The notes: a model not told the origin generated them from the letters alone. 64,000 nucleotides of DNA from Minisyncoccota bacterium (GCA_041651055.1 JBAZJW010000001.1:306661-370660); one strand, 5' to 3'. Positions 16,991-58,744 are shown, numbered from the stretch's first letter. Translations and numbers: made by a program.

Positions 16991-17026
16991 CCTTTACTTT
17001 ATGAACTTTACAAACTTTATAGACTA
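16991..17026. repeat. Copy A of the dispersed ACTTT-phased element (cctttactttatgaactttacaaactttatagacta). A partial reverse copy lies at 16955-16975.
   Basis: It was compared by eye with the copies at 22726, 26818, 34260, 37724 and 58602/58651. Confidence 0.6.
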
Positions 17027-17033
17027 ACTCTCT

Positions 17034-18749
17034 ATGGATATCTCTTCATACACATCTTCTTGGTCTAGATTTAGATCACATACATACACACTTTACAAAT
17101 CTCTTTCTCCAGAGAGGGTTCTTGTGTTGTGGAGCCTTGTAGCACTTGCTGTGCTGCTTACTTTTTCTGCACTTGTGGTTTTCAATACACGATTTCTTGT
17201 TAACACACCAAGTTATGGAGGAATAGTTCGTGAAGGTGTCATAGGAACTCCCCGCTTCATCAATCCAATACTTGCAACAAGTGATCAAGATCGAGATTTA
17301 ACATCTCTTGTCTACGCCGGCCTCACAAAACAAAACACTGCCGCACACCCAATACTTGATATGGCAGAATCAATTACAGAGAGCGATGACAGGCTTCATT
17401 ATGATGTCGTACTGTCAAAAACAGCAACCTTTCATGACGGTGTGCGTGTCACTGCTGACGACGTTATCTATACTGTATCACTATTGCAAAACCCAACAAT
17501 CAAAAGCCCTCATCGTGTAGAGTGGGAAGGTGTCTCAATAGAAAAACAAAATGACTACGCGTTTACCTTTTCTTTAAAGAAGCCATTTCCTCAATTCATG
17601 AATGTTCTTTCTATAGGAATCCTTCCGAAGCATGTGTGGAAAAATTTGACCGAGGAACAAATAAGTTTAAGTGACTATAATATCCATGCGATAGGAAGTG
17701 GTCCGTACAAAATTGATACGATCACAACAAACTCAGGCATTCCTGAAGTATTCACATTGTCGAGTTTTGCAAAGTATTCTCTCGGTCGCCCATACATAAA
17801 CACAATTACAATTACGGTGTATCAAAATGAGAAGTACCTCTTGCAAGCATTTCAAAATGGAGACATCGACAGATTCCATGGTGTAACCCCTGAAAAAATA
17901 ACTAACTTACAAATCGCAACGAGCAGCATCCACACATCGCTTCTTCCTCGTACCTTTGCTGTCTTTTTTAACCCGAACAAAGCAAGCGCACTCTCTGAGA
18001 AACAAGTGCGTACAGCTCTACAAATGGCGATCAATAAAGAAGCTATCGTAAGCACCGTGCTTCGTAACTACGGAAAAGTAATTAACGACCCCTACCCCTT
18101 TGACGAAGACACAACAACTTCGGAGTACAATATAACGAAAGCTCGTTCTCTACTAGAAAGCAGTAAGTCTCTCAAAAAAGCATCGAGTACACTTTCCATT
18201 ACTCTCGCTACAGCGAACACCGATGAGATGAAGAAGGTGGCAGAAATGATTAAAGCCGACTGGGAAGCTATCGGTGTAAATACAACGCTCGCTATTTATG
18301 AAGTATCAGATCTTAACCAAACAGTTATTAAAGATCGAGACTTTCAAGCTCTTCTCTTTGGCTCCATTACCGAAAATCCTTCTGATCTATACGCTTTCTG
18401 GCATTCCTCACAGAGGACCTACCCTGGACTCAATATTTCAAACTACGTAAGTAAAAGACTTGATGCAAACCTAGAAGTTCTCCGTGAAGATGAAGATGAG
18501 CTTGCTCGTATCAGCGCGTATGATGATGTAAAGAAAGAATTTAGAGAAGAAGTTCCTGGTATCTTTTTATTCGCACCGTCTCTTATTTATGTGGCACGAG
18601 ATAAAGTAACCACGATACTTCCACAATATAGTTTCGATAATGCCTCACGCTTCATCCTTATAGAAAGCTGGTACAGATACACCGATCGTGTGTGGCCAAA
18701 AACATATTACAAACAACTTATTCAAACAATGGAAAATCTATTACATTGA
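17034..18749 (+). CDS. ABC transporter substrate-binding protein, family 5 (peptide/oligopeptide-binding-like), N-terminally membrane anchored.
   Basis: It has an N-terminal TM helix and an SBP_bac_5-like N-terminus (GIVREGVIGTPRFINPILATSDQDRDLTSLVYAGL), and is 571 aa long. There is no adjacent permease gene. Confidence 0.7.
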   Translation: MDISSYTSSWSRFRSHTYTLYKSLSPERVLVLWSLVALAVLLTFSALVVFNTRFLVNTPSYGGIVREGVIGTPRFINPILATSDQDRDLTSLVYAGLTKQNTAAHPILDMAESITESDDRLHYDVVLSKTATFHDGVRVTADDVIYTVSLLQNPTIKSPHRVEWEGVSIEKQNDYAFTFSLKKPFPQFMNVLSIGILPKHVWKNLTEEQISLSDYNIHAIGSGPYKIDTITTNSGIPEVFTLSSFAKYSLGRPYINTITITVYQNEKYLLQAFQNGDIDRFHGVTPEKITNLQIATSSIHTSLLPRTFAVFFNPNKASALSEKQVRTALQMAINKEAIVSTVLRNYGKVINDPYPFDEDTTTSEYNITKARSLLESSKSLKKASSTLSITLATANTDEMKKVAEMIKADWEAIGVNTTLAIYEVSDLNQTVIKDRDFQALLFGSITENPSDLYAFWHSSQRTYPGLNISNYVSKRLDANLEVLREDEDELARISAYDDVKKEFREEVPGIFLFAPSLIYVARDKVTTILPQYSFDNASRFILIESWYRYTDRVWPKTYYKQLIQTMENLLH

Positions 18750-18777
18750 TAACCAATTACACAGTAACTAAAAAATT

Positions 18778-20679
18778 ATGAACCCAGAAACAACAACACA
18801 ATCTACAGGCGACATGAACCCGAGCTCAGAGAGCACACCGATTTCAACATCACCTTCTGCTCCATTCCGGAGACCAAACGATAGACCTCGCACAGGTGGT
18901 GCGAATCGTTCGCGAAACAACAACCGTCCCCCACGGTCAATGGTTGGACCAAAGTTCGACACAACGGTCACCGGTAAAAGTGAAACCGATCACATCCCCC
19001 CACTCAAGGATGGAGATATTCGCATTATCCATTTAGGTGGCGTAGAAGAAATCGGACGTAACATGAGTATGGTTGAGTACAAAGACACGATTGTAATTGT
19101 TGACTGTGGTGTTCAATTCACAGAAACAAGCACCCCTGGTGTTGATTTCATTTTGCCAAACACACGCTACCTCGAAGAGCACAAGCACAAGATCAAGGGT
19201 GTTGTCGTAACACACGGCCACCTCGATCACATCGGCGCTATTCCGTATATCATGCCACGTATAGGTAACCCACAGATTTATGCGCGCTTCTTTACCTCTC
19301 TTATGATCAAGAAGAGAATGGAAGAGTTCACTCACTTGCCACCGCTTACGATGAATATTATTGAGAAAGGAGACACGGTAACCTTCGGAGATTTGAAGGT
19401 TCGTTTCTTCGGAGTATCGCACGCGATACCAGACTCTATGGGTGTCATTATCGAAACACCGTACGGTGATATCGTTCACACAGGAGATTTGCGTCTCGAT
19501 CATGATGATGGAATCCCAACAGATAATGAAGAGGATCGTTACAAGGTTTTTGAAAACAGAAACATTCTCCTTATGATGGCGGATTCCACAAACTGTGAGA
19601 ACCCAGGATTTTCTATTTCTGATCGTGTTGTGTACAAAAATATCGAGAATGTTATCAGGGATACCCCCGGCCGTCTCATCGTCAGTACGTTTGCAAGTCA
19701 GGTAGAACGCATGCTCTATATGCTAGAAACCGCTGAACGATACGGCAAAAAAGTTGTCGTTGAAGGTCGCAGTATGAAAACAATTATCGAAGTAGCCAAG
19801 CTTGCGAACATGCTCAAGATAAAACCTGAGACACTTATCACGCTTGAAGAAATGCTTCACTACCCAGAGAACAAGCTCGTTATCTTGGCGACTGGTGCTC
19901 AAGGTGAAGAATTCGCTGCGCTCGGTCGTGTTGCAAATAAGACACACAAGTTTATTCGTCTCACACCAAAGGATACGATTCTCATGTCATCATCGGTAGT
20001 TCCCGGCAATGAACGCTCTGTTCAGAACCTCAAAGATAAACTTTCTCGTCAAGGTGCTCACCTTATTCACTACAAAACATCAGATGTTCACTCTTCTGGT
20101 CATGCGAACGCTGACGAACTTGTATGGATTCACCGAAAGATTCACCCTAAATTCTTCATCCCTGTTCACGGATATCACTACATGCTCCGTGTGCATGCCG
20201 ACCTCGAACGCAAGCTCGGTATGATGGAAGAAAATATTGTTATTCCAGATAACGGTATGATTATTGAAATTCAAGATAATGGAAATAAAATTCTTAAACT
20301 AAAAGAAAAGGCACCGTGTGAGATGATTGTCGTAGACGGAACATCTGTTGGTAAAATCCAAGATGTCGTCATGCGTGATCGTCAGACACTTGCTGAAGAC
20401 GGAATGTTCGTGGTTATCGGTGTTATCGATAGTCACACGCACACCCTCAAGAAGTCTCCCGATCTTATTTCTCGTGGATTCGTGTACCTCAAAGAATCAC
20501 AAGATCTTTTGTACCAGACACGTCTTCTTACCAAGAAGGTTATCGATGATTCGCTCGCTCGTGGAGGATTTTCAAACCTCGATGATATGAAGCAGGAGGT
20601 TGCAGAAGCAACAACAAAATTCCTTCTTCAGAAAACAGCGAAGCGTCCGGTAATTATTCCGGTTATCATCTCGGTATAG
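18778..20679 (+). CDS. rnj: Ribonuclease J (metallo-beta-lactamase/beta-CASP) with a ~90-aa low-complexity N-terminal extension.
   Basis: It has the HLGGVEEIGRNMSMVEY...VVTHGHLDHIGAIPY motifs and a beta-CASP region. Confidence 0.85.
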   Translation: MNPETTTQSTGDMNPSSESTPISTSPSAPFRRPNDRPRTGGANRSRNNNRPPRSMVGPKFDTTVTGKSETDHIPPLKDGDIRIIHLGGVEEIGRNMSMVEYKDTIVIVDCGVQFTETSTPGVDFILPNTRYLEEHKHKIKGVVVTHGHLDHIGAIPYIMPRIGNPQIYARFFTSLMIKKRMEEFTHLPPLTMNIIEKGDTVTFGDLKVRFFGVSHAIPDSMGVIIETPYGDIVHTGDLRLDHDDGIPTDNEEDRYKVFENRNILLMMADSTNCENPGFSISDRVVYKNIENVIRDTPGRLIVSTFASQVERMLYMLETAERYGKKVVVEGRSMKTIIEVAKLANMLKIKPETLITLEEMLHYPENKLVILATGAQGEEFAALGRVANKTHKFIRLTPKDTILMSSSVVPGNERSVQNLKDKLSRQGAHLIHYKTSDVHSSGHANADELVWIHRKIHPKFFIPVHGYHYMLRVHADLERKLGMMEENIVIPDNGMIIEIQDNGNKILKLKEKAPCEMIVVDGTSVGKIQDVVMRDRQTLAEDGMFVVIGVIDSHTHTLKKSPDLISRGFVYLKESQDLLYQTRLLTKKVIDDSLARGGFSNLDDMKQEVAEATTKFLLQKTAKRPVIIPVIISV

Positions 20680-20697
20680 TTACTATTCTCCAGTCTA

Positions 20698-20742
20698 CAG
20701 AAATACTAAAGCGGCACCTACGGTGCCGCTTTAGTATTTCTG
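20698..20742 (+). terminator. Rho-independent terminator after rnj.
   Basis: The hairpin is cagaaatactaaagcggcacc/tac/ggtgccgctttagtatttctg, a perfect 21-bp stem. Confidence 0.6.
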
Positions 20743-20748
20743 TTAGCA

Positions 20749-21963
20749 TTGGACTGGCAACTGTCGACTGTCGACTGTATACTTAGCATATCTATGCACG
20801 CCATCACTCGTAATAAGCTTCTCGTCGTGACGTATATGCTCACGATTTTATATGCCCTTCATTATGGCATACCACTGTACGCCACATCATCATACCTTCA
20901 TCAATACTTTAGCGCGTCATGGGTGAGCGCACTCTACATGATAGGAAGTGTCATTTCATTATGGGCGTCAATGTCAGTCACGCAGCGTATTAAAAAATTC
21001 CATAGCTACAAATTCACCGCATCGCTCGCCATCGCAGAGATTCTCATTACCATTCTCTTTGCATTGTCTTCGAATATGTATCTCATTGCCCTGTTCTTCA
21101 TTGTTCACTTTACCTTACAAGCACTACTCTATGTTTCCTTGAATGTTTTTATTGAGAGCTTTAGTAATCACGCCGAAACAGGAAGCATTCGTGGTCTCTT
21201 TCTAGCACTCCTTAATATGGGTATTCTTATTTCCCCTCTCATTGGAGGAACAATTCTCGCGAACGGATCATTTCAGATGCTGTATATCGTTGCATCCCTC
21301 ACCCTTGTACCGTTTCTTTTCTTTCTCCATAAATATCTCCAGCATGTTAAAGAGCCGGCCTATCACACCATCGATATGGCAGGAGCACTTAAGCTTGGGT
21401 GGCAAAACAAAAACCTCCGAGCGGCACTTGTATCCATACTCATTGTGCAATGTTTCTATGCGGTGATGGTGATTTATTCTCCGATATACCTCGCTACGAT
21501 TGGTATATCTCTTCCTACATACCTTTCATTTATTATTCCACTAGCACTTATTCCTCTTGTACTCTTACCGTATGAACTAGGGATGCTTGCAGATACTAAA
21601 CTTGGAGAAAAAGAACTACTTATCATTGGACTTCTTATTCTCGCAGTAACGACACTTCTGTGTGTCGTCGTTACGAGCCCTGACCCACGTGTATGGGTAT
21701 TCCTACTTCTCATTTCTCGTATTGGGGCCGCTTGTGTGGAAACTATGGCGTTTACCTACTACTTCAAAAAGGTTGGCCCCGAAGATGCCTCCCTAACAGC
21801 TCTCTTTAGTAATGCCTATGCTGTGGCGACGATTATTGTGGGCGCGGTTGGTGTCGCGGTGGCACCACTTCTTGTCACACGACCTCAACTGATGTTTGTT
21901 ATCCTCGGATGTGCTATATTGTGGAGTATATCCTACGTTCTTCCGATGAAGGACACGAGATAG
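20749..21963 (+). CDS. MFS-type transporter (multi-pass membrane protein). The true start is probably downstream, for example 20794 or 20836.
   Basis: There are about 12 hydrophobic segments with an MFS-like arrangement. The first 10 codons overlap a (GACTGTC)n tandem motif. Confidence 0.55.
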   Translation: MDWQLSTVDCILSISMHAITRNKLLVVTYMLTILYALHYGIPLYATSSYLHQYFSASWVSALYMIGSVISLWASMSVTQRIKKFHSYKFTASLAIAEILITILFALSSNMYLIALFFIVHFTLQALLYVSLNVFIESFSNHAETGSIRGLFLALLNMGILISPLIGGTILANGSFQMLYIVASLTLVPFLFFLHKYLQHVKEPAYHTIDMAGALKLGWQNKNLRAALVSILIVQCFYAVMVIYSPIYLATIGISLPTYLSFIIPLALIPLVLLPYELGMLADTKLGEKELLIIGLLILAVTTLLCVVVTSPDPRVWVFLLLISRIGAACVETMAFTYYFKKVGPEDASLTALFSNAYAVATIIVGAVGVAVAPLLVTRPQLMFVILGCAILWSISYVLPMKDTR

Positions 21964-21990
21964 CTCAGGCTTTCAGCTTGAGCTAATACT

Positions 21991-22023
21991 CAATGAAACA
22001 ATAATCAATATTCAAAAAGATAC
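21991..22023. repeat. Left arm of a 33-39-bp inverted repeat flanking the pseudouridine synthase gene.
   Basis: The revcomp of caatgaaacaataatcaatattcaaaaagatac matches 22765-22797 with 1 mismatch, and 2 mismatches over 39 bp. Confidence 0.8.
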
Positions 22024-22036
22024 TGATACAACACCT

Positions 22037-22726
22037 ATGAAAGAAATTAAAGTTACAACAAAAGAACCAGTACGCATCAATGTCTTCCTTCGTGATGAAG
22101 GAGTTGGTTCTCGTCGCACTATCGATGAATATATTTCTAGAAATTATGTAACCATCAATGGATCACAAGCAAGTCTTGGTAGTAAAGTATCAAAGGGAGA
22201 CACTGTGTGTATCACCTATCCGCAAAAAGAACTCATCTACGCCCTCTACAACAAACCTCGTGGTGAAGTCACAGGACGAAGACCGGAGCTCGGAGGTTGT
22301 GAACCTCTCGGCCGACTCGATAAAGAAAGTGAGGGATTACTGATGTACAGTAACGACTACCGTGTTGTGGACGCACTTCTTAACCCAAAGTATGGGCGTG
22401 AAAAAGAATATGATGTCGTTATACGAGAAAAAGCCACACCTCGTGTCGTAACGCTTCTCAAGAAAGGTATTTACACACAAGAAGCAACCTACGCCCCTGT
22501 GAAATCTGTCTCTATCTACAACGAAGGTTTTTCATTACGCATAGTTCTCACCGAAGGAAAGAAGCATGAGATTCGTCGTATGTTAAATGCGCTTAACTTA
22601 ACCGTGATGAAACTTGCTCGTACTCGTATCATGTCTTTTTCTGTTCATGGATTAGCTTCTGGTAAAGTACACACCATGACACCGAAACAGGTCACCACAC
22701 TTTTGAAAGATCTGGGTATACAATAG
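22037..22726 (+). CDS. Pseudouridine synthase, RsuA/RluB family (S4 domain plus catalytic domain).
   Basis: It has the GRLDKESEGLL catalytic-Asp motif and an N-terminal S4-like region, and is 229 aa long. Confidence 0.8.
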   Translation: MKEIKVTTKEPVRINVFLRDEGVGSRRTIDEYISRNYVTINGSQASLGSKVSKGDTVCITYPQKELIYALYNKPRGEVTGRRPELGGCEPLGRLDKESEGLLMYSNDYRVVDALLNPKYGREKEYDVVIREKATPRVVTLLKKGIYTQEATYAPVKSVSIYNEGFSLRIVLTEGKKHEIRRMLNALNLTVMKLARTRIMSFSVHGLASGKVHTMTPKQVTTLLKDLGIQ

Positions 22727-22753
22727 TCTATAAAGTCAAAAGTCCATAAAGGA
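22726..22753. repeat. Copy B of the dispersed ACTTT-phased element in reverse orientation (agtctataaagtcaaaagtccataaagg), immediately after the stop codon.
   Basis: It begins at the TAG stop of the pseudouridine synthase gene. Confidence 0.6.
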
Positions 22754-22764
22754 GACGCAGACTT

Positions 22765-22797
22765 GTATCTCTTTGAATATTGATTATTGTTTCATTG
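22765..22797. repeat. Right arm of the inverted repeat flanking the pseudouridine synthase gene.
   Basis: The sequence is gtatctctttgaatattgattattgtttcattg. Confidence 0.8.
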
Positions 22798-22801
22798 AAT
22801 A

Positions 22802-23584: not shown

Positions 23585-23781
23585 GCAACTATTTCTTGTA
23601 AGGCTATCATGTTTTTCTTGTATATTTTTCTCGTGCGGGACAAAATTCTCGTTTCAACTGAAATCTGAGATTTTCTAAATATGTGAATAACTACCCTCTA
23701 TGTACTTGAGTATATCACTCAAGGTTGTTACACTATGTACAGACAGTTGTTTCTTATCAGCTTATTAGAACTAGTAAAAGA

Positions 23782-24078: not shown

Positions 24079-24157
24079 GGAAGCCTGAGAAGCAACCGTA
24101 ACGCATCAAACAAAGACGTCGTTCCCCTACGCGCAAGCGTAGAAGAATTACAAAACA

Positions 24158-26759: not shown

Positions 26760-26812
26760 AACAATAACCGTCATTGCATATGCAATGACGGTTATTGTTT
26801 TTTCTTTTTTTG
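26760..26812. terminator. Bidirectional rho-independent terminator between convergent genes.
   Basis: It is a perfect 20-bp palindrome, aacaataaccgtcattgcat/atgcaatgacggttattgtt, flanked by an A-run and a T-run. Confidence 0.7.
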
Positions 26813-26817
26813 TATTT

Positions 26818-26855
26818 CCTTTATGGACTTTACAGACTTTTGACTTTATAGACTG
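26818..26855. repeat. Copy C of the dispersed ACTTT-phased element, immediately 3' of the PPIase stop.
   Basis: The sequence is cctttatggactttacagacttttgactttatagact. Confidence 0.6.
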
Positions 26856-26858
26856 GCT

Positions 26859-27377
26859 CTATTTCCCTGTCTTAATTAGCTCTACTTCGAAAATCAAAGT
26901 TGAATTCGCTGGAATGACACCTCCCACCGCCTGATTGCCATATGCGAGATCGGCTGGAATGGTGAGCTTACGCTTGCCGCCCACTTTCATACCTGCTACA
27001 CCCATATCCCACCCTTTAATTACTTCACCTGCTCCGAGAGTAAACATGAATCCCTGATCACCGTGATTACGTGATGCATCAAAAATCGTACCATTCATAA
27101 GCGTACCCACATACTGTACGGTCACCTTGTCCCCTGCGACAGCTGTGGCCCCTGTTCCCACCACTTCATCTTCCATCTTTAATTCTGTTACTAGCATATT
27201 GTTTGTTGTTACGTTTGTATTTGTAGTTTGTGTTGTCTGTGTCGTCGATGTTGCATTAATATTTGATATAAACTCATCATGAGTACCGCTATTGGGAGAC
27301 AAACCCAACGGGTCCCATAAAATTAATGCTCCAGCAATCACTACCCCAATTCCAATGTATATGTATGTTGATTTCAT
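26859..27377 (-). CDS. FKBP-type peptidyl-prolyl cis-trans isomerase, membrane anchored.
   Basis: It has an FKBP domain (GDKVTVQYVGTLMNGTIFDAS...GEVIKGWDMGVAGMKVGGKRKLTIPADLAYG) and an N-terminal TM helix. Confidence 0.85.
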   Translation of the reverse strand: MKSTYIYIGIGVVIAGALILWDPLGLSPNSGTHDEFISNINATSTTQTTQTTNTNVTTNNMLVTELKMEDEVVGTGATAVAGDKVTVQYVGTLMNGTIFDASRNHGDQGFMFTLGAGEVIKGWDMGVAGMKVGGKRKLTIPADLAYGNQAVGGVIPANSTLIFEVELIKTGK

Positions 27378-34176: not shown

Positions 34177-34259
34177 ACTATTAATATTTCACCTTGCTAA
34201 TATGCTACCCGCACTCATCTAGGCAAGACCTAGACAAATCAAAGTTTCAAAAGAGTATT

Positions 34260-34297
34260 CCCTTTATGGACTTTTGACTTTATAGACTTTACAAACT
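34260..34297. repeat. Copy D of the dispersed ACTTT-phased element, immediately 3' of the uvrA stop.
   Basis: The sequence is ccctttatggacttttgactttatagactttacaaact. Confidence 0.6.
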
Positions 34298-34304
34298 GAT
34301 ACAC

Positions 34305-36917
34305 CTATTTTTGACGCTTGAGGACTTTCTTTAAATACTGACCGGTATAACTATTCGGATTCGATGCCACTTGCTCTGGCGTCCCTGTCGCGATTACCTT
34401 TCCTCCCCCGACACCTCCTTCGGGACCGATGTCGATCACATGATCGGCACATTTAATAATATCCAAGTTGTGTTCGATGAGAAGTACCGTATTTCCTTTA
34501 TCAACCAATTTATTCAAAATCTCAATCAACTTCACAATGTCTTCGTAGTGAAGTCCGATAGATGGTTCATCTAGGAGATAAATAGTTTTCTCTACATGAG
34601 GACGATAGAGCTCACTCGAAATCTTCACACGCTGAGCCTCCCCTCCTGAAAGTGTCGTAGCCGACTGACCGAGCTCAAGGTAGCCGAGGCCTACATCGTC
34701 GAGTGTCTTTACTCTGTCGTATACCGCAGGAATATCATAAAAGAATGTGAGTGCTTCTTCGACAGTCATACAGAGCACATCATAAATACTCTTCCCTTTC
34801 CATTTCACTTCGAGTGTTTCTTTCATGAATCTTTTTCCAAGACAGACATCGCACTCCACATACACGGTCGGTAAGAAGTGCATTTCGACAGCTATTTCAC
34901 CATTACCCTGACACACTTCACAACGTCCACCTTTCACGTTAAAAGAAAAGCGAGATGGCTTCCATCCACGAATACGAGCCTCTTCTGATTCTGCGAAGAG
35001 GTCACGAATGTGTGTCCATGCACCAGTATATGTCGCAGGGTTCGATCTCGGCGTGCGACCAATAGCTGATTGGTCGATGAGCACGACACGAGAAACATAC
35101 TCAGTTCCAGAAAACGAAGCCACATTGTAAATCTGCGCACTGCGATGACGACGTTCCAATCGTGCAAGTAAGTTCTTGTACAAAATCTCGTACATGAATG
35201 AACTCTTACCAGACCCAGACACGCCCGTGATGACACCGAGCTTGCCAAGTGGCACATTCACGTTCATATCTTTGATATTAAAAATATTCCCACCGGTCAC
35301 ACGAAGTGCTCCCTTATCTGTTTGGCGACGAACTGGAATAGGGATTTGTTTTTCCCCACGCAAGTATGCAAGTGTCACACTGCCAGACTTATTGTTCGGT
35401 GCAGTGAGTAGTTCGTCCAGATATCCAGAAACTACCACCTCGCCACCATGCACCCCCGCCTTCGGACCAATGTCCACAATAAAATCAGATGCGAAGATAG
35501 TATCTTCATCATGTTCGACGATGATAATAGTGTTTCCGATATCACGAAGATGGAGCAGTGTTTGGATGAGACGTTCGTTATCTCGCTGATGAAGTCCAAT
35601 AGTTGGCTCATCGAGCACATAGAGAGCGCCGACAAGTTTGGACCCAAGCTGGCTCGCCAGACGAATACGTTGTGCTTCCCCTCCTGAAAGCGTGTCTGCT
35701 TTTCTATTGAGTGAAAGATAATCAAGGCCGACATTCAACATGAATTGTAGTCGTGACTGTATTTCTTTAATAACAACAGAAGCAATTTCTTGTTCTTTCT
35801 TGGTGAGAGGAATACGTGCGAAGTAGCTTTCTGCATCTTTAATAGAAAGCGCCGTGATATCCACGATATTTATTTTTTCAACATCATCTAGGTACACGTG
35901 AAGCGCTTCAGGACGAAGACGCTTGCCGTGACAATCATCACATTCATCTAAGCCGCCAAAATACTTGGTGCCGAGACCATTACACGTCGGACATGCACCA
36001 TACGGTGAGTTGAACGAAAACAAACGAGGTTCAATTTCGGGAAATGAAAATCCACAAGAAGCGCACGAGAACTTATTACTCATAATGGTTTTCTCGCCGA
36101 GAATTTCCACTTCGAGAAGCCCGTTTGATTCTTGAAGCGCGCGTTCGATAGCTTCTGAGAGTCGAGTCATGGCATCTTTTTCTGATGCTTTGTTTCGCAA
36201 TTCATCAATAGCAATAGAATCCACTACGATTGAAATTTCGTGCTTCTTTGTTTTCGAAAGGACTATTTGTTCACGCAGTGACTTACGGTGTCCATCGATG
36301 ACAGCTTCGGTGTAGCCTTTACCGAGCATGTCGTAAAGCATTTGATAGTGTTCCCCTTTTCTTCCACGCACAAGTGGCGACATGATGTGAAGTTCCGCAT
36401 GAGAAAATTCAACACCCATCATCTCTGTTTTTATTTTTTTGTAATCAACAGCTTTTACCTTACCCAAAATGAAATGCATAATTTCTTCATTCGAAAGTTT
36501 TTGAATTCGTTCACCGCATTCTATACAGTATGGCTTGCCAACGCGCGCATAGAGTACACGTAAGTAGTCATAGATTTCGGTAATGGTCGCAACTGTTGAA
36601 CGAGGGTTACGACCGGCTGACTTTTGGTCGATAGAAATAGCAGGAGAAAGGCCAACGATTTCATCAACGTCCGGCTTTTGCATTTGATTCAAAAACTGAC
36701 GGGCGTATGCAGAAAGTGATTCTACGTAGCGACGCTGTCCTTCGGCGAATATCGTATCAAAAGCAAGTGATGACTTTCCACTTCCAGACAATCCCGTGAA
36801 TACGATCATCTTATGGCGTGGCATCTCAACGGTAATGTTTTTGAGATTGTGTGTACGCGCACCCCGAACAATAATGCTTTCTAAATGTGCATGATTTTCT
36901 TGTTTTTTTGAGGCCAT
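34305..36917 (-). CDS. uvrA: Excinuclease ABC subunit A
   Basis: It has two ABC ATPase modules with Zn-finger insertions. The N-terminus is [54 protein letters not shown]. Confidence 0.9.
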
Positions 36918-37499: not shown

Positions 37500-37720
37500 C
37501 TCTCTTAGGGTCAATTCCCCGCAGCTTGCTGCGGTATCCGTGTCATCCTCGCGAAGGCGGGCGAATCAGCAGATTCGGATCTTGGATCACGCCAGTGTCT
37601 AGGACCTGGATTCCGGATCAAGTCCGGAATGACACCTGATACCTCGTCAGCTTGCTGCGAGGTGTTTCATTGCAAGAAACACAAAGAGCGGCCACGAAGT
37701 GGCCGCTCTTTGTGTTTTGT
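37500..37720 (+). ncRNA. Candidate structured small RNA of about 220 nt, class unknown. It lies between two terminators.
   Basis: The region is GC-rich and has a chain of perfect hairpins. These are ccgcagc-ttg-ctgcgg, attccgga-tcaag-tccggaat, cctcg...cgagg and gtgtttc-attgcaa-gaaacac. The 12-mer cagcttgctgcg occurs twice. It ends in the terminator acaaagagcggccac-gaa-gtggccgctctttgtgttttgt. There is no ORF. Confidence 0.35.
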
Positions 37721-37723
37721 ATC

Positions 37724-37753
37724 CCCTTTTGACTTTAAGGACTTTATAGACTA
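37724..37753. repeat. Copy E of the dispersed ACTTT-phased element, immediately 3' of the stop of gene 37758..38291.
   Basis: The sequence is cccttttgactttaaggactttatagacta. Confidence 0.6.
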
Positions 37754-37757
37754 CCCC

Positions 37758-38291
37758 TTACTTCATCGTCGCACTTTCCAAAATCTTGATCGCATCATCG
37801 TGTACTGTCTTCTTACTTTCCACGACAACAAGCCATTGATTATCAAGAACACGCGCAATATGCCATTCACTACCAGCTGATTCAGCAACCTGCCACTCAT
37901 ATGAGCCGATAGTTGTCGTACCTGTGGTATTTATCACAGAAATCTGTGGTGCAATAAATTTATTAATATACATAAGAGGTGTAAGACCACGACCACCCTC
38001 ATAGCTGAAGTAAATGTTTGCAATAATATTAGAACCATCAACAACTCTAATAAGCGCACCATCCATACTGATCGTTGTCGTAGCAACTTCTGGAATAGAG
38101 AAACTATATTCGATTTGATTGTCTCCTTCGAATGTACGCACAACTTTTCCTGTAACCGTTTTCATGTTCACAGTACTCACAACCTGATTCTTTGGGGCAC
38201 GAGCAGTGTGCTTTTTCATATAATAATAACTTCCGAACACAATAGCAGCCAAACTGACAACAACAAGCAAAAGGGATATATATGTTTTCAT
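37758..38291 (-). CDS. Hypothetical membrane-anchored protein.
   Basis: It has an N-terminal TM helix (MKTYISLLLVVVSLAAIVF) and a beta-rich ectodomain. No family was recognised. The track ORF starts at 38339. Confidence 0.5.
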   Translation of the reverse strand: MKTYISLLLVVVSLAAIVFGSYYYMKKHTARAPKNQVVSTVNMKTVTGKVVRTFEGDNQIEYSFSIPEVATTTISMDGALIRVVDGSNIIANIYFSYEGGRGLTPLMYINKFIAPQISVINTTGTTTIGSYEWQVAESAGSEWHIARVLDNQWLVVVESKKTVHDDAIKILESATMK

Positions 38292-38381
38292 ATGCCCACT
38301 AGTATACGCTTCAAAAAATAGTCTGCAAAGACTAGACAAATAAAGAAAAACCTATACAAAACAGTATATTCTTCTCTTTTT

Positions 38382-49533: not shown

Positions 49534-49534
49534 G

Positions 49535-52290: not shown

Positions 52291-52291
52291 G

Positions 52292-52750: not shown

Positions 52751-52895
52751 ACTTTTAGTATATCATTTTACTCATAATGAATCTGGTTTTGGAAAGTCAG
52801 AAAATAGATTAGATTCTAGGCGCGGGAAAGCGAAAGAGAAGCCGTACGTACTAGTACGGTGACGAGAGAGCTGGGACCCGCAACAACGAAGCTAA

Positions 52896-53993
52896 CTATT
52901 TTATGACTTTTCCAGCACGAGCAACGTGTTCCACGAGAGTATGCGTATACCCCATTTCATTGTCATACCACGCCAACACCTTCACAAGGTTTCCCCCTAC
53001 CACACGCGTCATTTTGAGATCAGCGATAGACGCAAAAGGAAGACCCAGGATATCGCTGGAAACAAGTTCTTCTTCTGTCACTGTGAAAATATCTTTCCAT
53101 GCATCGGTACGAGATGCCTTCGTGAGAATGTCGTTCACTTCTTCCGCTGTCGTGTCACGCTTTGCTATAAAGGTAATATCAACGATTGATCCAGCTGGCA
53201 CTGGTACACGCATAGAAATACCGTCAAAGAGCCCGACAAGTGGTGGAAAGGCTTTGGTGACGGCAATAGCGGCACCTGTTGATGATGGCACGATATTCTG
53301 CGCTGCAGCACGCCCTTCACGAAAATCTTTTTTGTTCGGACCATCCACGATTGATTGCGAGGCAGTATACGCATGTACAGTATTTAAGAGTGCTTTTTCT
53401 ATACCAAGAGCTTCATCCAAAATAGCAATGAGCGGACTTGAAGCATTCGTTGTACACGACGCATTCGAAGTAATATTACACGTGCCGAATTTTTCTTCAT
53501 TCACACCCATGAGAATGGTTTCACCGGGCACCGTACCTGTCGTATCTTCTTTTGCTGGCGCTGAGATGACGACATGCTTTGCTCCGGCGACGATATGCGC
53601 TTGTGCTTTATCGTATGCTGTGAAAAGTCCAGTAGACTCAACAACCACATCGATGTCCATAGCCTTCCATGGAAGCAATGTCGGATCTTTTTCTTGAACA
53701 ACCTGCACACGAGAATCTATTTCCCCTTCGATAACCAAAAATTGTTCGGTCTTTACTATTTCTGTCCCTCCACTTTGGTCGGGACCTCGGTCCACTTCGT
53801 GGACCTCGGCATGCACATCAAACGGTGACACGCGATATACCGTATCATACTGAAGTAAGTATGCGAGATTATGCACGTCTCCTAAATCATTAATTGCTAC
53901 TACTTCTATATCGTCACGAGTTAGTGCAACTTTATAGAAAGCTCGCCCGATACGCCCGAAACCATTGATTGCTACGCGAAGTTTTTTGTCCAT
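52896..53993 (-). CDS. gap: Glyceraldehyde-3-phosphate dehydrogenase
   Basis: It has the VAINGFGRIGR NAD-binding motif and the ASCTTN catalytic Cys region. Confidence 0.9.
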   Translation of the reverse strand: MDKKLRVAINGFGRIGRAFYKVALTRDDIEVVAINDLGDVHNLAYLLQYDTVYRVSPFDVHAEVHEVDRGPDQSGGTEIVKTEQFLVIEGEIDSRVQVVQEKDPTLLPWKAMDIDVVVESTGLFTAYDKAQAHIVAGAKHVVISAPAKEDTTGTVPGETILMGVNEEKFGTCNITSNASCTTNASSPLIAILDEALGIEKALLNTVHAYTASQSIVDGPNKKDFREGRAAAQNIVPSSTGAAIAVTKAFPPLVGLFDGISMRVPVPAGSIVDITFIAKRDTTAEEVNDILTKASRTDAWKDIFTVTEEELVSSDILGLPFASIADLKMTRVVGGNLVKVLAWYDNEMGYTHTLVEHVARAGKVIK

Positions 53994-54089
53994 ATGTAAG
54001 ATAGTATATAGTTAATAGTTAGTAGTTGATAGTTAATAACTAAAAAACACCCCCAAATTATTTTGAAGTGTTTTTAGATATCAGTTAAA

Positions 54090-54974
54090 CTATCTGCGTC
54101 CGTCGGGAACATCATCTTCACCATCTTCCTGACCATTAACATCTTTAAGGTCACGAACTTCAGTGTTTACCTTAAGGGTACTAGTTGCCCTGTTTTCGTT
54201 TTTTATTTCTAGTTTTACACCCACCTTGTTCTCAGATTCTTTATTTGAGTCCACAGAATCTGTATCTTCTACATCTTCTGTATCCTCATTTTCGGATTCC
54301 ATCGTATCTTTCTCTTGATCTTCTTTTGACATTTCTTCTTCTATGCTTCTTTTTTCATCTTGGAAAGATTTTTTTATTTCATCTTTTTTATCCTTAAAAT
54401 CTTCCGCTGATTTCTTGGCATCTTCTAAAGCTTTTTCGGCGTCAGTTATTTTAGCCTCATCTTTTGTCACTTTAGCTTCTTCTAGAAGTTTTTTAAAGGA
54501 CTCGATTTTCACATCGACAATTTCTTTGTGAGCATCTGAAAGAGATTTCGAAAGATCACTTTCTTCTGAATCAAATTCATCATTGGCCTCTTTGGCTAAT
54601 TTTGTGACATCGTTTCCTGCGGCTTTTTCTGTCTTAATAATCTCTGCTGTTTTTTGTACAGTATCTATAATACTTGTATGCACACTATCTAAACCTTTTG
54701 AGTGATCACCAGATTCTGCAAGCATAGCCTTTGCTTCCGCAACACGCTCAGCCACGAAAGCTATTTGAAGTTTTACTTTAGCTTCCGGAGTAAATGCAAA
54801 AAGTTCCTGCAAAGATTCTGTTAGTTTATCGAAAAAATAAAAAGAACTTTCTGGAGTAAGTCCAGCTGAAGCAGAAACATTAGACGAAGAAACTGGAGTT
54901 GTTGTACTTGTTTGAGCAAAAGCAAAGGACACTGCTGCCCCAAACAATAACACTGATGATAGTATTTTTTTCAT
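54090..54974 (-). CDS. Secreted acidic coiled-coil-like hypothetical protein.
   Basis: It has a signal peptide, MKKILSSVLLFGAAVSFAFA, and a K/E/D-rich low-complexity C-terminal half. Confidence 0.55.
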   Translation of the reverse strand: MKKILSSVLLFGAAVSFAFAQTSTTTPVSSSNVSASAGLTPESSFYFFDKLTESLQELFAFTPEAKVKLQIAFVAERVAEAKAMLAESGDHSKGLDSVHTSIIDTVQKTAEIIKTEKAAGNDVTKLAKEANDEFDSEESDLSKSLSDAHKEIVDVKIESFKKLLEEAKVTKDEAKITDAEKALEDAKKSAEDFKDKKDEIKKSFQDEKRSIEEEMSKEDQEKDTMESENEDTEDVEDTDSVDSNKESENKVGVKLEIKNENRATSTLKVNTEVRDLKDVNGQEDGEDDVPDGRR

Positions 54975-55052
54975 AGTAATTTATTACTTTTAATAAGTAC
55001 TAACAGTATATCACTATAATAACCCTAGGCTCGCCTCGTACAAAAAACCAGA

Positions 55053-55203
55053 AGTACTTCTGGTTTTTTGTATTTTGCTTGGTCGTAGAATATTGCTTCA
55101 TAGAAATGTTGCTACATTTCTATGTCTTCGAAGCCAAGCTTCTCGACCTGCAAAAATACAGTCGTAAAGTACTTCTATTTTTTGTATTTTGCTTGGTCGT
55201 GAT
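55053..55203. repeat. Direct repeats of about 33 bp (gtacttct..ttttttgtattttgcttggtcgt) at 55053-55088 and 55169-55203. Each forms a hairpin, and the first includes the perfect palindrome acaaaaaaccagaagt/acttctggttttttgt.
   Basis: The two copies were compared directly. Further small palindromes lie at 55090-55150. Confidence 0.7.
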
Positions 55204-55245
55204 TACACGACACCCAGCAAAAATATAGTCATGAATACTCTCCTT

Positions 55246-55267
55246 ATTTTTGCGGGCCCACGAAGAA
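55246..55267 (-). repeat. Duplicated tRNA-Trp 3' end. It is a 22-bp direct repeat of 55439-55460, comprising the last 15 nt of the tRNA plus 7 nt of trailer. It is a candidate att-like scar.
   Basis: atttttgcgggcccacgaagaa is identical at both sites, and the two copies are 193 bp apart. Confidence 0.8.
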
Positions 55268-55398
55268 GTTCGGTCACCTCGTCTCGTTTTATGAGTACAT
55301 AAAACAGGAGACTCCTCGAAGTCACGTTTGACACTCGTCTACTGACTCGCCCTATTCGATTCTCCACGCATGTGACACAGGTCACATGCTGTGGGTCC

Positions 55399-55446
55399 GC
55401 AAAAATATAAAAACAGTATTCGAAAATACTGTTTTTATATTTTTGC
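55399..55446 (-). terminator. Perfect 22-bp-stem hairpin immediately 3' of tRNA-Trp.
   Basis: The hairpin is gcaaaaatataaaaacagtatt-cgaa-aatactgtttttatatttttgc. Confidence 0.6.
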
Positions 55447-55516
55447 GGGCCCACGAAGAATCGAACTTCGACCAACGGATTTGGAGGCCGTTGTTCTACC
55501 ATTAAACTATAGGCCC
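55446..55516 (-). tRNA. tRNA-Trp (anticodon CCA), 71 nt, with no encoded CCA.
   Basis: The revcomp is GGGCCTATAGTTTAATGGTAGAACAACGGCCTCCAAATCCGTTGGTCGAAGTTCGATTCTTCGTGGGCCCG. It has a 7-bp acceptor stem, the anticodon loop CUCCAAA (U33, CCA, A37), and a T-arm CGAAG-TTCGATT-CTTCG. Confidence 0.85.
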
Positions 55517-55539
55517 ATGTGTGCTATTCTAGCACAAAT

Positions 55540-55570
55540 TTTTTAATTTCTAATTTCAATTGATAAATTA
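55540..55570 (-). promoter_or_regulatory. Variant of the shared A/T-rich element (ttttaatttctaatttcaattgataaatta) 24-54 bp upstream of tRNA-Trp. A TAGAAT -10-like box lies 8-13 nt upstream of the tRNA 5' end.
   Basis: It resembles 25574-25593 and 29294-29313. Confidence 0.4.
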
Positions 55571-55600
55571 AAAACCAGACGATTGTCTGGTTTTTAATTT
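55571..55600. terminator. Bidirectional terminator hairpin 3' of rpmG.
   Basis: The hairpin is aaaaaccagac-gatt-gtctggttttt. Confidence 0.6.
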
Positions 55601-55603
55601 GAA

Positions 55604-55765
55604 TTACTTCTTTGTTTCCTTAAACATAACATGCTTTCGGAGTTTCTTTGAATACTTCTTGAGTTCAATTTTACGAGTTACAAGCTTTTTATTCTTTGAA
55701 GTCCAATATACTTCACCTGTTTCCTTGTGTTTTAGTAAAATGAGATTATCTTGTGCCTTTGCCAT
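55604..55765 (-). CDS. rpmG: 50S ribosomal protein L33 (53 aa). It is absent from the ORF track because it is under 60 aa.
   Basis: The minus-strand translation is [53 protein letters not shown]. It has the L33 pattern (YxTxKNK...ELKKY...KHV..KE.K). Confidence 0.8.
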
Positions 55766-55810
55766 AGTTTTGCAATTATACTTTATATTTTACCATTTAG
55801 CAACCCCGTA

Positions 55811-57211
55811 TTATCCGAGTTTCCCTTCAAAATAAGCCGAGAGTTCCGCTACAGGAATACGCACCTGCTCCATCGTATCTCTGTCTCGCACAGTCACCGC
55901 ATTATCTGTAAGCGTATCGAAGTCCACTGTCACGCAATACGGTGTGCCGATTTCATCCTGACGACGATAACGTTTACCGATTGACTGAGTTTCATCATAC
56001 GTAACTCTGGCAATTTTCTTTAAAGACTTTACCAGTTCCCGAGAAGGGGTAAGTAGCTCTTCTTTTTTAGAAAGAGGAAGTACGGCTATTTGGAATGGAG
56101 CGATCACAGGACTGAAGTGAAATACAGTACGAGTATCACCCTCGCCAACGGTTTCTTCGTCGTAGGCACTCGTAAGAATTGCCAGTATCGTTCTATCGAT
56201 ACCAAATGTTGGCTCAATAACATGAGGAATAAATTTCTCCCCTGTCTGATCATCTACATATGCTTGAGAAACACCACTGTACTTTTCGTGTTGCGTAAGG
56301 TCAAAATCTGTTCGGTAGGCAAGGCCGTATAATTCTTTTTGTCCAAAAGGAAAATCAAATTCAATGTCGATAGTACGCTTTGAATAGTGAGCAAGGTCAA
56401 CTCCAGCTTTTTCAATTTCATGAGTACCTTCTTTTTTAATACCAATATACTCTATCCAGGCATACATTTCCTTGCGCCACATTTCAAATAATTCTGCCCA
56501 GTCACCTTTGCGTGGGTCAAAGAAATATTCAAACTCCATAAGATTAAACTCACGAGAACGAAAAATAAAGTCTCTCGCAGCAATTTCATTTCTAAACGCT
56601 TTACCGATTTGAGCCAAACCAAAAGGAAGCTTAGGGTGAATACTATCTAAAACATTTTTGTAATTCGTAAACATTCCCTGTGCAAGCTCTCCTCGCAGAT
56701 ATCCCGTTGTGCTCGTCTCACTTGATGCCCCCATACGAACTGGAAAGAGAAGGTTAAAATTCTTTGCCTCACTGAATGGATTTCCATCTTTACTTTTAAT
56801 TCCTTTTTCTACAATAAGTGCAGTCATTTGGTCTGGCGTTAATCCTGCAGCTGAGATGCCAGCATCTTCCAAAACATGGTCAGTGCGGTATGTTTTTTTG
56901 GTAACACTGTCTTCAATAAGAGGGTCATGAAACCCTGCCAAGTGACCACTTGCTTCCCATATTTTCTCACTACTTATCTGTGCAGCATCGAGACCGTACA
57001 TGTCGTCTCTTTTGTTCACAAAAAAATCCCACCACGCATTTTCAAGTGCACGTTTCAAAAGGACACCTGTTGGCCCGTAGTCAAAGGTTCCTGCAAGCCC
57101 TCCATAGAGATCACTTCCTGGGAAAATAAATCCACGGCGTTTACAAAGCGATACGATCGCTTCCATTCGTGCTTGTGAGTCAGTTGTATTCATATCATTT
57201 GATTCTACCAC
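55811..57211 (-). CDS. glyQS: Glycine--tRNA ligase (alpha2 dimeric type).
   Basis: It has the GlyRS class II motifs (YGGLAGTFDYGPTGV, FDPLIED...) and is 466 aa long. Confidence 0.85.
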   Translation of the reverse strand: MVESNDMNTTDSQARMEAIVSLCKRRGFIFPGSDLYGGLAGTFDYGPTGVLLKRALENAWWDFFVNKRDDMYGLDAAQISSEKIWEASGHLAGFHDPLIEDSVTKKTYRTDHVLEDAGISAAGLTPDQMTALIVEKGIKSKDGNPFSEAKNFNLLFPVRMGASSETSTTGYLRGELAQGMFTNYKNVLDSIHPKLPFGLAQIGKAFRNEIAARDFIFRSREFNLMEFEYFFDPRKGDWAELFEMWRKEMYAWIEYIGIKKEGTHEIEKAGVDLAHYSKRTIDIEFDFPFGQKELYGLAYRTDFDLTQHEKYSGVSQAYVDDQTGEKFIPHVIEPTFGIDRTILAILTSAYDEETVGEGDTRTVFHFSPVIAPFQIAVLPLSKKEELLTPSRELVKSLKKIARVTYDETQSIGKRYRRQDEIGTPYCVTVDFDTLTDNAVTVRDRDTMEQVRIPVAELSAYFEGKLG

Positions 57212-57255
57212 AAAGTGTCGCTAGGCGTAAAAACAAGACCATTCCCACCACGTAA

Positions 57256-58221
57256 TCATTTGAGGTACGTCGCAAAAAAATCCTCCATCTTCTGATCCGT
57301 AAAATCATTCACACGCTTAACCACATCCATAGTGTGAGGCCATAAAGGAAGCCGGTAATAGGTCACAGGTACGCCCAAGGTATGAAGATATGCTTTCAAT
57401 ACATCTGATTGACTAAGAGGAACAAGCTCGTCAGATGTCCCATGAAAAATAAGTGTTGGGGGATCTTTTGAATCAAGGTATGTTATTGGTGAAGCCTCTT
57501 TGTAAAGTTCTGGAGAATCTTCGTATGGGTGACCAATGAACGACGTTACGAGCGAGTGATTTCTCATATAGCCTGTTGTGAGATCTGTCGGCCCATATAA
57601 ATCGACAACAGCTTTTATTGGATGAGAGACAGAACCGCCCCATCCATATGCCGCAAGAAGCGCGAGATGTGCTCCCGCTGAACCTCCGATAATTGCGATA
57701 TTATTTTTATCATACCCATACGTCTCACTGTGTGAAGACAGCCATGTCACTGCATCGTTAACATCTTCAATAGCTGCGGGATACGGAGTGTCAGCATCTA
57801 GTCTATACGAAATGGTCGCCGTGATATATCCTTTCTTGGCGAACGAAAGAAGGTACACCAAATAGTCCGATCTTTTGCCGCCACTCCATCCACCACCATG
57901 AACAAAAATCAAAAGCGGTGCCAGCTTGATGCTCTTTTTTTGTGGAATATACATGTCGAGCTGTAGCGACTGACCATTCACATTTTTATATTCAATATTC
58001 TTTATCTCCTTAATATCTGCGGGAATCTCTGGCGTTTTGTTTATTAAGGTTTCTAGTCCTACATCAATCGCCAGATATAATGGTGTGACAAAATGGTACC
58101 CAAGCGGAGGATCGTGAGGATGTAGAGCAGACCATGCTCGCGGAATAACCATCAGGAAGCAAATCAAGACAAGCACACATAACAAACCAAGAATGGTTCG
58201 TTTGAAAAGTTTTGATTTCAT
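57256..58221 (-). CDS. Secreted/membrane-anchored alpha/beta hydrolase (esterase/lipase family).
   Basis: It has an HGGGW oxyanion motif (IFVHGGGWSGG), a GGSAGAHLA nucleophile elbow and an N-terminal TM/signal region. Confidence 0.75.
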   Translation of the reverse strand: MKSKLFKRTILGLLCVLVLICFLMVIPRAWSALHPHDPPLGYHFVTPLYLAIDVGLETLINKTPEIPADIKEIKNIEYKNVNGQSLQLDMYIPQKKSIKLAPLLIFVHGGGWSGGKRSDYLVYLLSFAKKGYITATISYRLDADTPYPAAIEDVNDAVTWLSSHSETYGYDKNNIAIIGGSAGAHLALLAAYGWGGSVSHPIKAVVDLYGPTDLTTGYMRNHSLVTSFIGHPYEDSPELYKEASPITYLDSKDPPTLIFHGTSDELVPLSQSDVLKAYLHTLGVPVTYYRLPLWPHTMDVVKRVNDFTDQKMEDFFATYLK

Positions 58222-58279
58222 GAAAAGTTACGTATGTATTGTGTATAGTATTGCACCCCCCTAACCCCTAACAGGGGAC

Positions 58280-58534
58280 CTAGTACACGAAAAATCCTCC
58301 GAAAATACTATTGATAAGTGGAATAATTCCACCAACAGAAAATACAATAAATAATCCGATAAGTCCCCAGAACAAATGACTCTTACCATCATTCTTTTTC
58401 GTAGGATCATTCATATCGTAGATGAACTTCGCAGCACCATAGAGAAAGTATATAAAAGCACAGACAATAACAATTTGATACAGTGGCTGTACGAAGCCAA
58501 TGACGATATTTCTAAAAAGAGTTTCTCCGTTCAT
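58280..58534 (-). CDS. Small 2-TM protein, a VirB2/TrbC-like T4SS-pilin-type module (84 aa).
   Basis: It has two TM helices separated by a charged loop (DMNDPTKKNDGKSH) and shares the 2-TM module with the four downstream paralogues. Confidence 0.55.
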   Translation of the reverse strand: MNGETLFRNIVIGFVQPLYQIVIVCAFIYFLYGAAKFIYDMNDPTKKNDGKSHLFWGLIGLFIVFSVGGIIPLINSIFGGFFVY

Positions 58535-58544
58535 GGATATGAGT

Positions 58545-58744
58545 ATACCGCGTGCGACCCTAAATACAAACTTGTAAGTTTGTATTTAGGGTCGCACGAG
58601 TCGAAAGTCCGTAAAGTTTGTAAAGTCAAAAGGAAATACGGGTTCGTAATTTACTTTATGGACTTTTTACTTTATGGACTTTATAGACTAAAGTTTTTAT
58701 ACAAAAAATCCTGACATATAGTCAGGATTTTTTATATAAAAACT
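58545..58744. repeat. Hairpin- and repeat-dense intergenic block. It contains the perfect palindrome gtgcgaccctaaatacaaacttg/caagtttgtatttagggtcgcac, copies F1 (58602-58633, reverse) and F2 (58651-58690, forward) of the ACTTT-phased element, and the perfect hairpin aaaaaatcctgacata/tagtcaggatttttt.
   Basis: The palindromes were read directly from the sequence. Confidence 0.7.

Follow-up and report, generated by a model that had tools for sequence, protein, structure and literature searches.

Dispersed GACTTT repeats behind stop codons of a Minisyncoccota bacterium: probable gene-less arms of an intervening-sequence-like element, with five units as the prevailing number

What is a short periodic repeat doing immediately behind the stop codons of several genes on one bacterial contig? 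The question is raised by a stretch of DNA from a Minisyncoccota bacterium (GCA_041651055.1, JBAZJW010000001.1:306661-370660), whose 64,000 nucleotides are called the window below. An initial annotation had noted in it seven copies of an element built from ACTTT/GACTTT units. Their identity as the repeat arm of an element that resembles the intervening sequences (IVSs) of rRNA, and that surrounds a gene of the PF05635 family, is well supported. We consider it probable that the arrays are gene-less copies of such arms, each likely to be a five-site platform for a pentameric protein.

All seven copies were found at the positions first given for them, and there is a weak, partial eighth. An array is a tandem of units with a GACTTT core, either 9-mers (GACTTTAYR) or 7-mers (GACTTTY); in the window the former occur as GACTTTATA and as variants ending in ..ATG, ..ACA, ..ACG and ..AAG, the latter as GACTTTT and GACTTTC. 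Allowing up to 2 mismatches, the core 13-mer GACTTTATAGACT has 14 matches in the window for 1.94 expected, and the core 13-mer CTTTATGGACTTT 13 for 2.25 expected; 0 of 100 shuffled sequences reached 14 with the first core, and 0 of 100 reached 13 with the second. Scanning the window for clustered ACTTT/AAAGT cores returned exactly the seven copies. A profile made from them (nhmmer) re-found these seven, with E-values of 6e-12 to 2e-6, and the weak eighth at 16954-16972 (E 0.44). Five of the seven strong copies have five units. The claim that four copies stand just behind a stop codon, in the same orientation to the mRNA, was borne out: their AGTC end lies 0-7 nt from the stop, and the mRNA bears the AGUC...AAAGUC strand. 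The other three strong copies are not adjacent to a stop and are members of two inverted pairs (copy 1 with a partner arm, and copies 6 and 7; Table 1). The window contains two inverted arm pairs, probably mini-elements of deletion type, and four solo arms.

The arrays are widespread. Species-representative genomes were scanned for ACTTT-N(1-4)-GACTTTATAGACT, which gave at least 119 array-bearing stretches, mostly from many classes of Patescibacteria, with others from Bacteroidota and from metagenome-assembled genomes labelled Gammaproteobacteria. Among the matches listed, to which the counts of this paragraph refer, the Patescibacteria were Paceibacteria, Magasanikbacteria, Zambryskibacteria, Saccharibacteria, Roizmanbacteria, Campbellbacteria, Gracilibacteria and Peribacteria. 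A long open reading frame (ORF) converging on the array ended -3 to +15 nt from its GACT end in 50 arrays and overlapped it in 13, making 63 arrays, against 10 with an ORF of opposite orientation (5 abutting and 5 overlapping). The strand-biased placement at gene 3′ ends thus holds beyond the window. The first unit often includes the stop codon itself, as TAGTC.., TGAGTC.., TAAGTC.., or as a TAA within AGTCTATAAAGTC. Between convergent genes the arrays form inverted pairs that frequently enclose a terminator hairpin, and between co-directional genes an array may occupy the entire spacer up to the next ATG. Head-to-head pairs (an AAAGT array, then an ACTTT array) were found 38 times, tail-to-tail pairs 3 times. 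Together with those of the window, 194 arrays with at least 3 cores were counted, in which consecutive cores are spaced by 7, 8 or 9 nt in 180, 73 and 413 cases respectively. A phage origin was considered as well, and viral contigs were found to carry the pattern rarely (17 of 2.9 million).

Clustering the ORFs of the array-bearing loci pointed to a protein. The second most recurrent family, again among the matches listed, is a protein of ~115 aa that belongs to PF05635, 23S_rRNA_IVP (E 5.9e-33), and to TIGR02436, four helix bundle protein. In 6 of the 6 PF05635 loci reached through their arrays, an AAAGTC array lies directly upstream of the gene and a GACTTT array directly downstream. To avoid the bias of array seeding, 80 metagenome loci were fetched by protein similarity alone. 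At least 2 AAAGT cores were present in the 100 nt upstream of the gene in 63 of these 80 loci, at least 2 ACTTT cores in the 110 nt downstream also in 63, and both in 56. Most of the remaining loci have other short tandem repeats in the same mirrored layout, of the types AACGTC/GACGTT, AGTACTA/TAGTACT, AAGTGNC/GNCACTT and GGGAAAA/TTTTACC. Flanks with divergent repeats, GTAAGTC and GAAAGTG types included, were seen at loci L168, L177, L178, L185, L188, L197, L205, L207, L211 and L218. Since relatives of the same protein have different mirrored repeats, the repeat sequence diverges along with the gene, a pattern that may stem from recognition specificity or simply from common descent.

In the protein-selected loci the two arms are complementary: the upstream and downstream arms of one locus pair at a mean of -36.2 kcal/mol, compared to -28.0 for non-cognate arms and -19.5 for shuffled partners. 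Placement of the element is precise. A co-directional upstream ORF ends exactly at the start of the arm in 64 of 72 loci, the median distance from its stop to the ATG being ~50 nt, and the right arm overlaps the last codons and the stop of the PF05635 gene itself (..KTL and stop, AAAACTTTATAA). Only 3-10 nt often separate the outer end of the right arm from the start codon ATG of the host gene that follows (..GACTAATATG; L139-L210, e.g. L162, L196 and L210), meaning that the element replaces the whole spacer, including the position at which a ribosome-binding site would be expected.

The number of units per arm was then counted with a relaxed core. Among the 194 array-seeded arms (matches listed and window), 103 have five units, 21 have four and 22 have six. 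The 103 five-unit arms represent 100 distinct sequences, in which spacings of 7 and 9 nt are combined in many orders. A constraint on length instead of count was rejected, as arms spaced only by 7 nt (6 observed) or only by 9 nt (6 observed) are not depleted among them. From the distinct sequences, the mixed spacings and the undepleted extremes, we conclude that the count is constrained, rather than the length, and that descent from one master copy does not account for it. Five is also the mode in the protein-selected loci, for the left arms (26 of 73) as for the right arms (26 of 77). Two solved structures, 2GSC and 2RLD, are matched by a profile of the armed proteins; both entries have five chains, and the solved relative Xcc0516 is described as a homopentamer (PMC4990558). 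These results indicate that the number of repeats agrees with the pentameric form of the proteins in this family.

Certain arms have grown far beyond this, to 12-25 units (L012 3665-3810 and 6015-6164, L015 45-146, L017 4015-4129, and also upstream in L140, L192 and L218). Arrays can therefore grow by slippage, though most stay at five. In Bacteroidota, GACTTT arrays adjoin recurring GC-rich hairpins at L030, L048 and L091 (Butyricimonas-like) and at L051, L102 and L119 (Odoribacter-like). These hairpins read GGAGGTGTG..CACACCTCC, or GCGCCCCGCAGGGGTC with AAGCTGCCGT before it, which suggests that array and hairpin form a composite repeat there.

Comparison with four syntenic relatives (L219-L222), in which the pseudouridine synthase is 77-84% identical, was informative as to the age of the window copies. 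The arrays are mostly absent at orthologous gene ends, and none was found behind the pseudouridine synthase, FKBP or uvrA genes: copy 2 is absent in L219-L222, copy 3 at the FKBP 3′ end in L219 and L220, and copy 4 at the uvrA 3′ end in L222. The latter contig covers the uvrA-uvrB stretch that corresponds to the surroundings of copy 5, and no array was detected anywhere in it. The only array site retained is a degenerate counterpart of copy 1, in the secG-SBP spacer of L219, the closest long contig. Being absent from close relatives, the solo arms were recently gained by this Paceibacterota lineage.

The last residue encoded by the pseudouridine synthase ORF is the same in L219, and differs in position by no more than one residue in L220 and L222; its stop is TAA in the relatives, and TAG followed by TC.. 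in the window. This difference made a TA target-site duplication (TA-GTC...GAC-TA) attractive, with a TA-targeted insertion regenerating a stop. The flank statistics do not support it. The base before the terminal AGT is T in 52 cases, A in 44, G in 40 and C in 15; T is found in only 52 of 162 arms, and no consistent target-site duplication was seen at the array flanks.

Folding separates the paired copies from the solo ones. The pair made by copies 6 and 7 folds at -32.6 kcal/mol (z -6.1) and that of copy 1 and its partner at -25.3 kcal/mol (z -5.0, fold of 16950-17030 on the minus strand), while solo arms have no significant fold (z -1.7 for copy 2 and for copy 4). Complementary termini able to form a stem, a feature of IVSs, are thus present in the two paired copies and not in the four solo arms. 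Copies 3 and 5 remain single-stranded, with a stop codon before them and a strong terminator hairpin behind (26760-26799 after FKBP, 37677-37717 after copy 5), and so are located in 3′ untranslated regions (3′ UTRs). The early description as a 3′-UTR element is supported for these two. The arms were also considered as intrinsic terminators themselves and rejected as such: they are AT-rich direct repeats, and copies 3 and 5 are upstream of separate strong terminators. An inner motif, AAAGGRRATAC, is common to the window arms and is like the AAAGTAAAATACA-ATG leader of armed genes. Copy 4 has a possible degenerate partner at 34225-34245.

Table 1. Position, composition and setting of the arrays in the window
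Feature	Position	Strand	Units and motif	Setting
Copy 1	16988-17028	-	4-5 units; minus strand reads AGTCTATAAAGTTTGTAAAGTTCATAAAGTAAAGG	secG-SBP spacer; pairs with 16954-16975
Partner arm of copy 1	16954-16975	+	2 units (GTTTGTAAAGTCTACAAAG)	Inverted; 30 nt past secG stop
Copy 2	22723-22761	+	4 units	Solo; pseudouridine synthase TAG stop (22724-22726) overlaps first AGTC
Copy 3	26812-26857	-	5 units + inner motif AAAGGAAATAC	Solo; 4 nt past FKBP stop (26859-26861)
Copy 4	34253-34299	-	5 units + inner motif AAAGGGAATAC	7 nt past uvrA stop (34305-34307); uvrA-uvrC spacer
Copy 5	37717-37755	-	4 units + inner motif AAAAGGGGATAC	Solo; 5 nt past stop of hypothetical gene (37758-37760)
Copy 6	58599-58645	+	5 units + inner motif AAAGGAAATAC	Left arm of a gene-less inverted pair (mini-element)
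Copy 7	58647-58691	-	5 units	Right arm of same mini-element as copy 6; arms ~17 nt apart

According to Pfam, the genes next to the solo arms are a pseudouridine synthase (22037-22726, plus strand), an FKBP (26859-27377, minus strand) and a UvrA-like gene (34305-36917, minus strand); the gene at 37758-38339 (minus strand) has no family match in Pfam. A perfect 20-bp hairpin (GTGCGACCCTAAATACAAAC / GTTTGTATTTAGGGTCGCAC, 58550-58598) directly adjoins the left arm of the mini-element of copies 6 and 7. An ORF of 112 aa (58376-58714), called as a gene on the contig and without family match, spans this hairpin and both arms; the repeat has probably given rise to a spurious call here. Elsewhere in the window, positions 1-12432 of the minus strand are the 3′ part of one gene, whose 4335-aa product has no recorded Pfam hit, and the plus-strand ORFs listed there are therefore spurious. 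Positions 59440-59838 (minus strand) weakly resemble a pilin of type IV secretion systems (PF18895, E 1.6e-5), the match falling narrowly short of the Pfam cut-off. Just outside the window, an AIPR (abortive-infection-type) gene lies at 6223-7836 of L223, a stretch of the same contig. Rfam 15, run over the whole window at the gathering threshold, recovered tRNA-Trp only, which leaves no known RNA family for the arrays, and no rRNA gene; the copies lie in spacers beside protein-coding genes. A permissive Rfam scan of 58400-58800 gave only sub-threshold generic hairpin matches.

How might such arrays work? A complete element consists of a ~115-codon gene for a 23S_rRNA_IVP/four-helix-bundle protein (PF05635, TIGR02436), a relative of Avd; of a left arm of about five purine-rich AAAGTC-type units, reaching from the stop of the co-directional upstream gene to a few bases before the ATG; and of a complementary right arm of about five GACTTT units overlapping the gene's own stop. 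The arm would be transcribed within the host mRNA, where five AAAGUC units, with their flexible spacing of 7-9 nt, could offer a single-stranded platform for one four-helix-bundle pentamer, each subunit taking one unit as in TRAP-type ring proteins. The five-unit mode, a 7-9-nt spacing that ignores helical phase and the fixed strand together suggest a single-stranded ligand with five equivalent sites. Where both arms are present, they would pair into a long imperfect stem, of the kind that RNase III cuts in rRNA IVSs. The best reading of the window arms is that they are derivatives of this IVS-like element, akin to miniature inverted-repeat transposable elements (MITEs).

The wider proposal, that IVP/Avd-like pentamers are sequence-specific in reading five tandem 7-9-nt repeats on single-stranded RNA and that gene-less arms, shed precisely at stop codons, put host mRNAs under their control, is a tentative one, which we hold possible and rather doubtful. 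If it is true, the uvrA, FKBP and pseudouridine synthase mRNAs are controlled by a protein encoded elsewhere in the genome, a mobile and self-spreading post-transcriptional network exists across Patescibacteria, Bacteroidota and other phyla, and the rRNA IVSs have a function.

A protein of the right family is encoded nearby, and this counts in favour of an IVS-like origin of the arrays. On the same contig, ~7 kb past the right end of the window (L223, 2730-3165), lies a PF05635/bAvd-like gene of 121 aa. Its left arm is made of CGTTCTT/CGTTAGG x4 and its right arm of AACGAAG AACGAAG AACGTCCT AACGAAT AACGATAC; the right arm has five AACG cores. In the 72 kb examined (window and L223), the CGTTCTT/AACGAAG type has no gene-less copies. 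The density of gene-less AAAGT arrays does not differ clearly between the surroundings of AAAGT-armed genes (0.76 per 10 kb) and those of genes with other arms (1.47 per 10 kb), the latter class not being a clean one.

Other observations weigh against the arrays being gene-less arms read by a pentamer. The arms of the nearby PF05635 gene are not of the GACTTT type, and no cognate GACTTT-armed gene was found in the 72 kb examined; in the window itself, a tblastn search with three IVP proteins gave no PF05635 gene or remnant (best E 0.36). Within gene-less pairs, the fit between cognate arms is not better than that between non-cognate ones of one type (p = 0.10), which leaves selection for a register-perfect stem unsupported there. 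The four solo arms share the inner boundary AAAGGRRATAC, hard to obtain by independent deletions, which suggests that what spreads may be the solo arm as such. Something else could also lie behind the mode of five units. Finally, the IVS protein of Coxiella may not even be made (PMC4990558).

Alternatively, the arrays could be purely selfish, MITE-like DNA, their arms being DNA ends recognised by a recombinase or transposase, the gene a cargo or helper, and the window copies inert scars that neither act as RNA nor bind protein. This is a serious rival, albeit in our view a fairly unlikely one. Presence or absence of the arrays varies between close relatives, the host genes are varied housekeeping genes with no shared theme, the inverted-arm architecture is strongly favoured (38 to 3), and the cognate arms of gene-less pairs show no special fit; moreover, IVSs are regarded as selfish, with S23p possibly unexpressed in Coxiella (PMC4990558). 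Against this reading, we found no array-associated transposase (none of the 25 most recurrent protein clusters of the array-bearing loci, among the matches listed, is a transposase family), nor a clear target-site duplication. A sharp mode of five over 100 distinct arms with free 7/9 spacing is unexpected for transposon ends, and the base-precise abutment to stop codons with fixed polarity calls for an extra explanation.

Benefit to the host, with no part for the four-helix-bundle protein, would be the sense of a 3′-UTR module that binds S1, a cold-shock protein, Rho or an RNase and tunes termination, decay or translational coupling to the gene that follows. The unpaired arrays between stop and terminator would suit it, as would the arms that elsewhere fill stop-to-ATG spacers, including those of ribosomal-protein operons, and the UC dinucleotide that returns every 7-9 nt; CspB reportedly prefers GTCTTT-like heptamers. 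Against it, relatives do not conserve the arrays at the orthologous gene ends, and in the window only ~5 of the roughly 45 gene ends are occupied. Rho loading sites are C-rich and G-poor, which this sequence is not. Neither a Rho nor a cold-shock-protein site accounts for the tight PF05635 link or the five-unit mode, and both were rejected as a full explanation; we think the module improbable. Least probable are double-stranded DNA operators for a transcription factor or a nucleoid protein. Direct repeats with a 6-bp core are usual for proteins that bind DNA cooperatively, and the omega repressor binds heptad arrays. Here the spacing of 7, 8 or 9 bp (180/73/413) ignores helical phase, the sites are at gene 3′ ends and not at promoters, and strict stop-codon polarity together with non-conservation between relatives does not fit a regulon. 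CtsR-type or omega-type operators were rejected for the position at gene ends and the non-helical spacing, and nothing pointed to the A-tract bending or nucleoid-protein site that had been suggested at the outset.

The gene-less arms of an IVS-like element tie a dispersed repeat to an old, unexplained selfish element: to our knowledge, PF05635/TIGR02436 proteins and the rRNA IVSs that carry them have been known since the 1990s with no accepted function. Our results indicate that the PF05635 gene is almost always accompanied by a mirrored pair of arms, each with about five short repeats, that it lodges exactly behind the stop codon of a co-directional gene, and that arms spread on their own as well, their density in this Paceibacterota genome being about one per 10 kb. 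This accounts for a class of stray repeats, and for ORF calls that are probably spurious, in the genomes of candidate phyla, and it supplies a marker of recent insertion for uncultivable lineages.

Compared to other short repeats, the arrays have partial counterparts. The TAACTGA repeats of Beggiatoaceae, Cyanobacteria and Bacteroidetes (PMC4679880), and the cyanobacterial short tandemly repeated repetitive (STRR) sequences, are likewise intergenic tandem 7-mers with 2-6 copies per set. TAACTGA repeats are also patchy across phyla, suggesting horizontal spread, and have been proposed as sites for RNA-binding proteins; they differ by their sequence, by their position just upstream of start codons and by being almost never inverted, and their report mentions no PF05635 link (PMC4679880). 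MITEs, repetitive extragenic palindromes (REPs) and bacterial interspersed mosaic elements (BIMEs) are, like the arrays, short, non-coding, dispersed, intergenic and variable between close relatives, and our paired copies share with them inverted ends and hairpins. The resemblance to REP/BIME repeats, on which the initial annotation had remarked, did not survive, as single arms are direct repeats without a fold of their own: there is no REP palindrome with a GTAG motif, and no partner that is a transposase or a REP-associated tyrosine transposase (RAYT) among the 25 most recurrent protein clusters of the matches listed. A MITE would be expected to show a target-site duplication, which is not evident here, and the larger relative carries a four-helix-bundle gene instead of a transposase. 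Unlike both MITEs and REPs, the arms are tandem 7/9-nt units with a mode of five.

For a possible way of working, though not for membership, TRAP offers the nearest analogy: its 11 subunits read 11 (G/U)AG triplets. An arm read by a pentamer would share with such rings a repeat number equal to the subunit number, flexible spacers and a single-stranded ligand; the protein fold is unrelated, and binding is here a proposal.

The closest kin are the rRNA IVSs themselves. That of the Coxiella burnetii 23S rRNA carries a PF05635-family ORF, S23p, preceded upstream of its ATG by tandem GACAGAT heptamers, whose number varies from two to three between strains, and by a degenerate GACAGAA; its complementary termini form a 28-bp stem, and it is excised by RNase III (PMC4990558). 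Genes of the family are also found inside cas operons (PMC3936711) and in insertions within the 16S and 23S rRNA genes of candidate phyla radiation (CPR) bacteria (10.1101/2024.02.27.582315), and the family has a relative in Avd, which serves diversity-generating retroelements as accessory protein (PMC10053308). With the IVSs of Coxiella burnetii and Leptospira, our elements have in common the protein family, the tandem short repeats before the ATG, which are present in the related PF05635 loci, the complementary termini, which among the window copies belong to the two pairs, and the existence of ORF-less versions (PMC4990558; 10.1101/2024.02.27.582315). They differ in that the arrays stand behind the stops of protein genes and not in rRNA helices, that the unit is GACTTT(Y/AYR) instead of GACAGAT, and that the window copies have no ORF, four of them being single-armed. 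The initial annotation knew no such element by its sequence, and the GACTTT repeat, its placement at stop codons and the gene-less arms have no description in the searchable literature. The kind itself is known: it is that of the IVS, whose termini are complementary and which has tandem heptamers (PMC4990558). What is new is the occurrence of an IVS-type element away from rRNA, along with derivatives of it that lack the gene.

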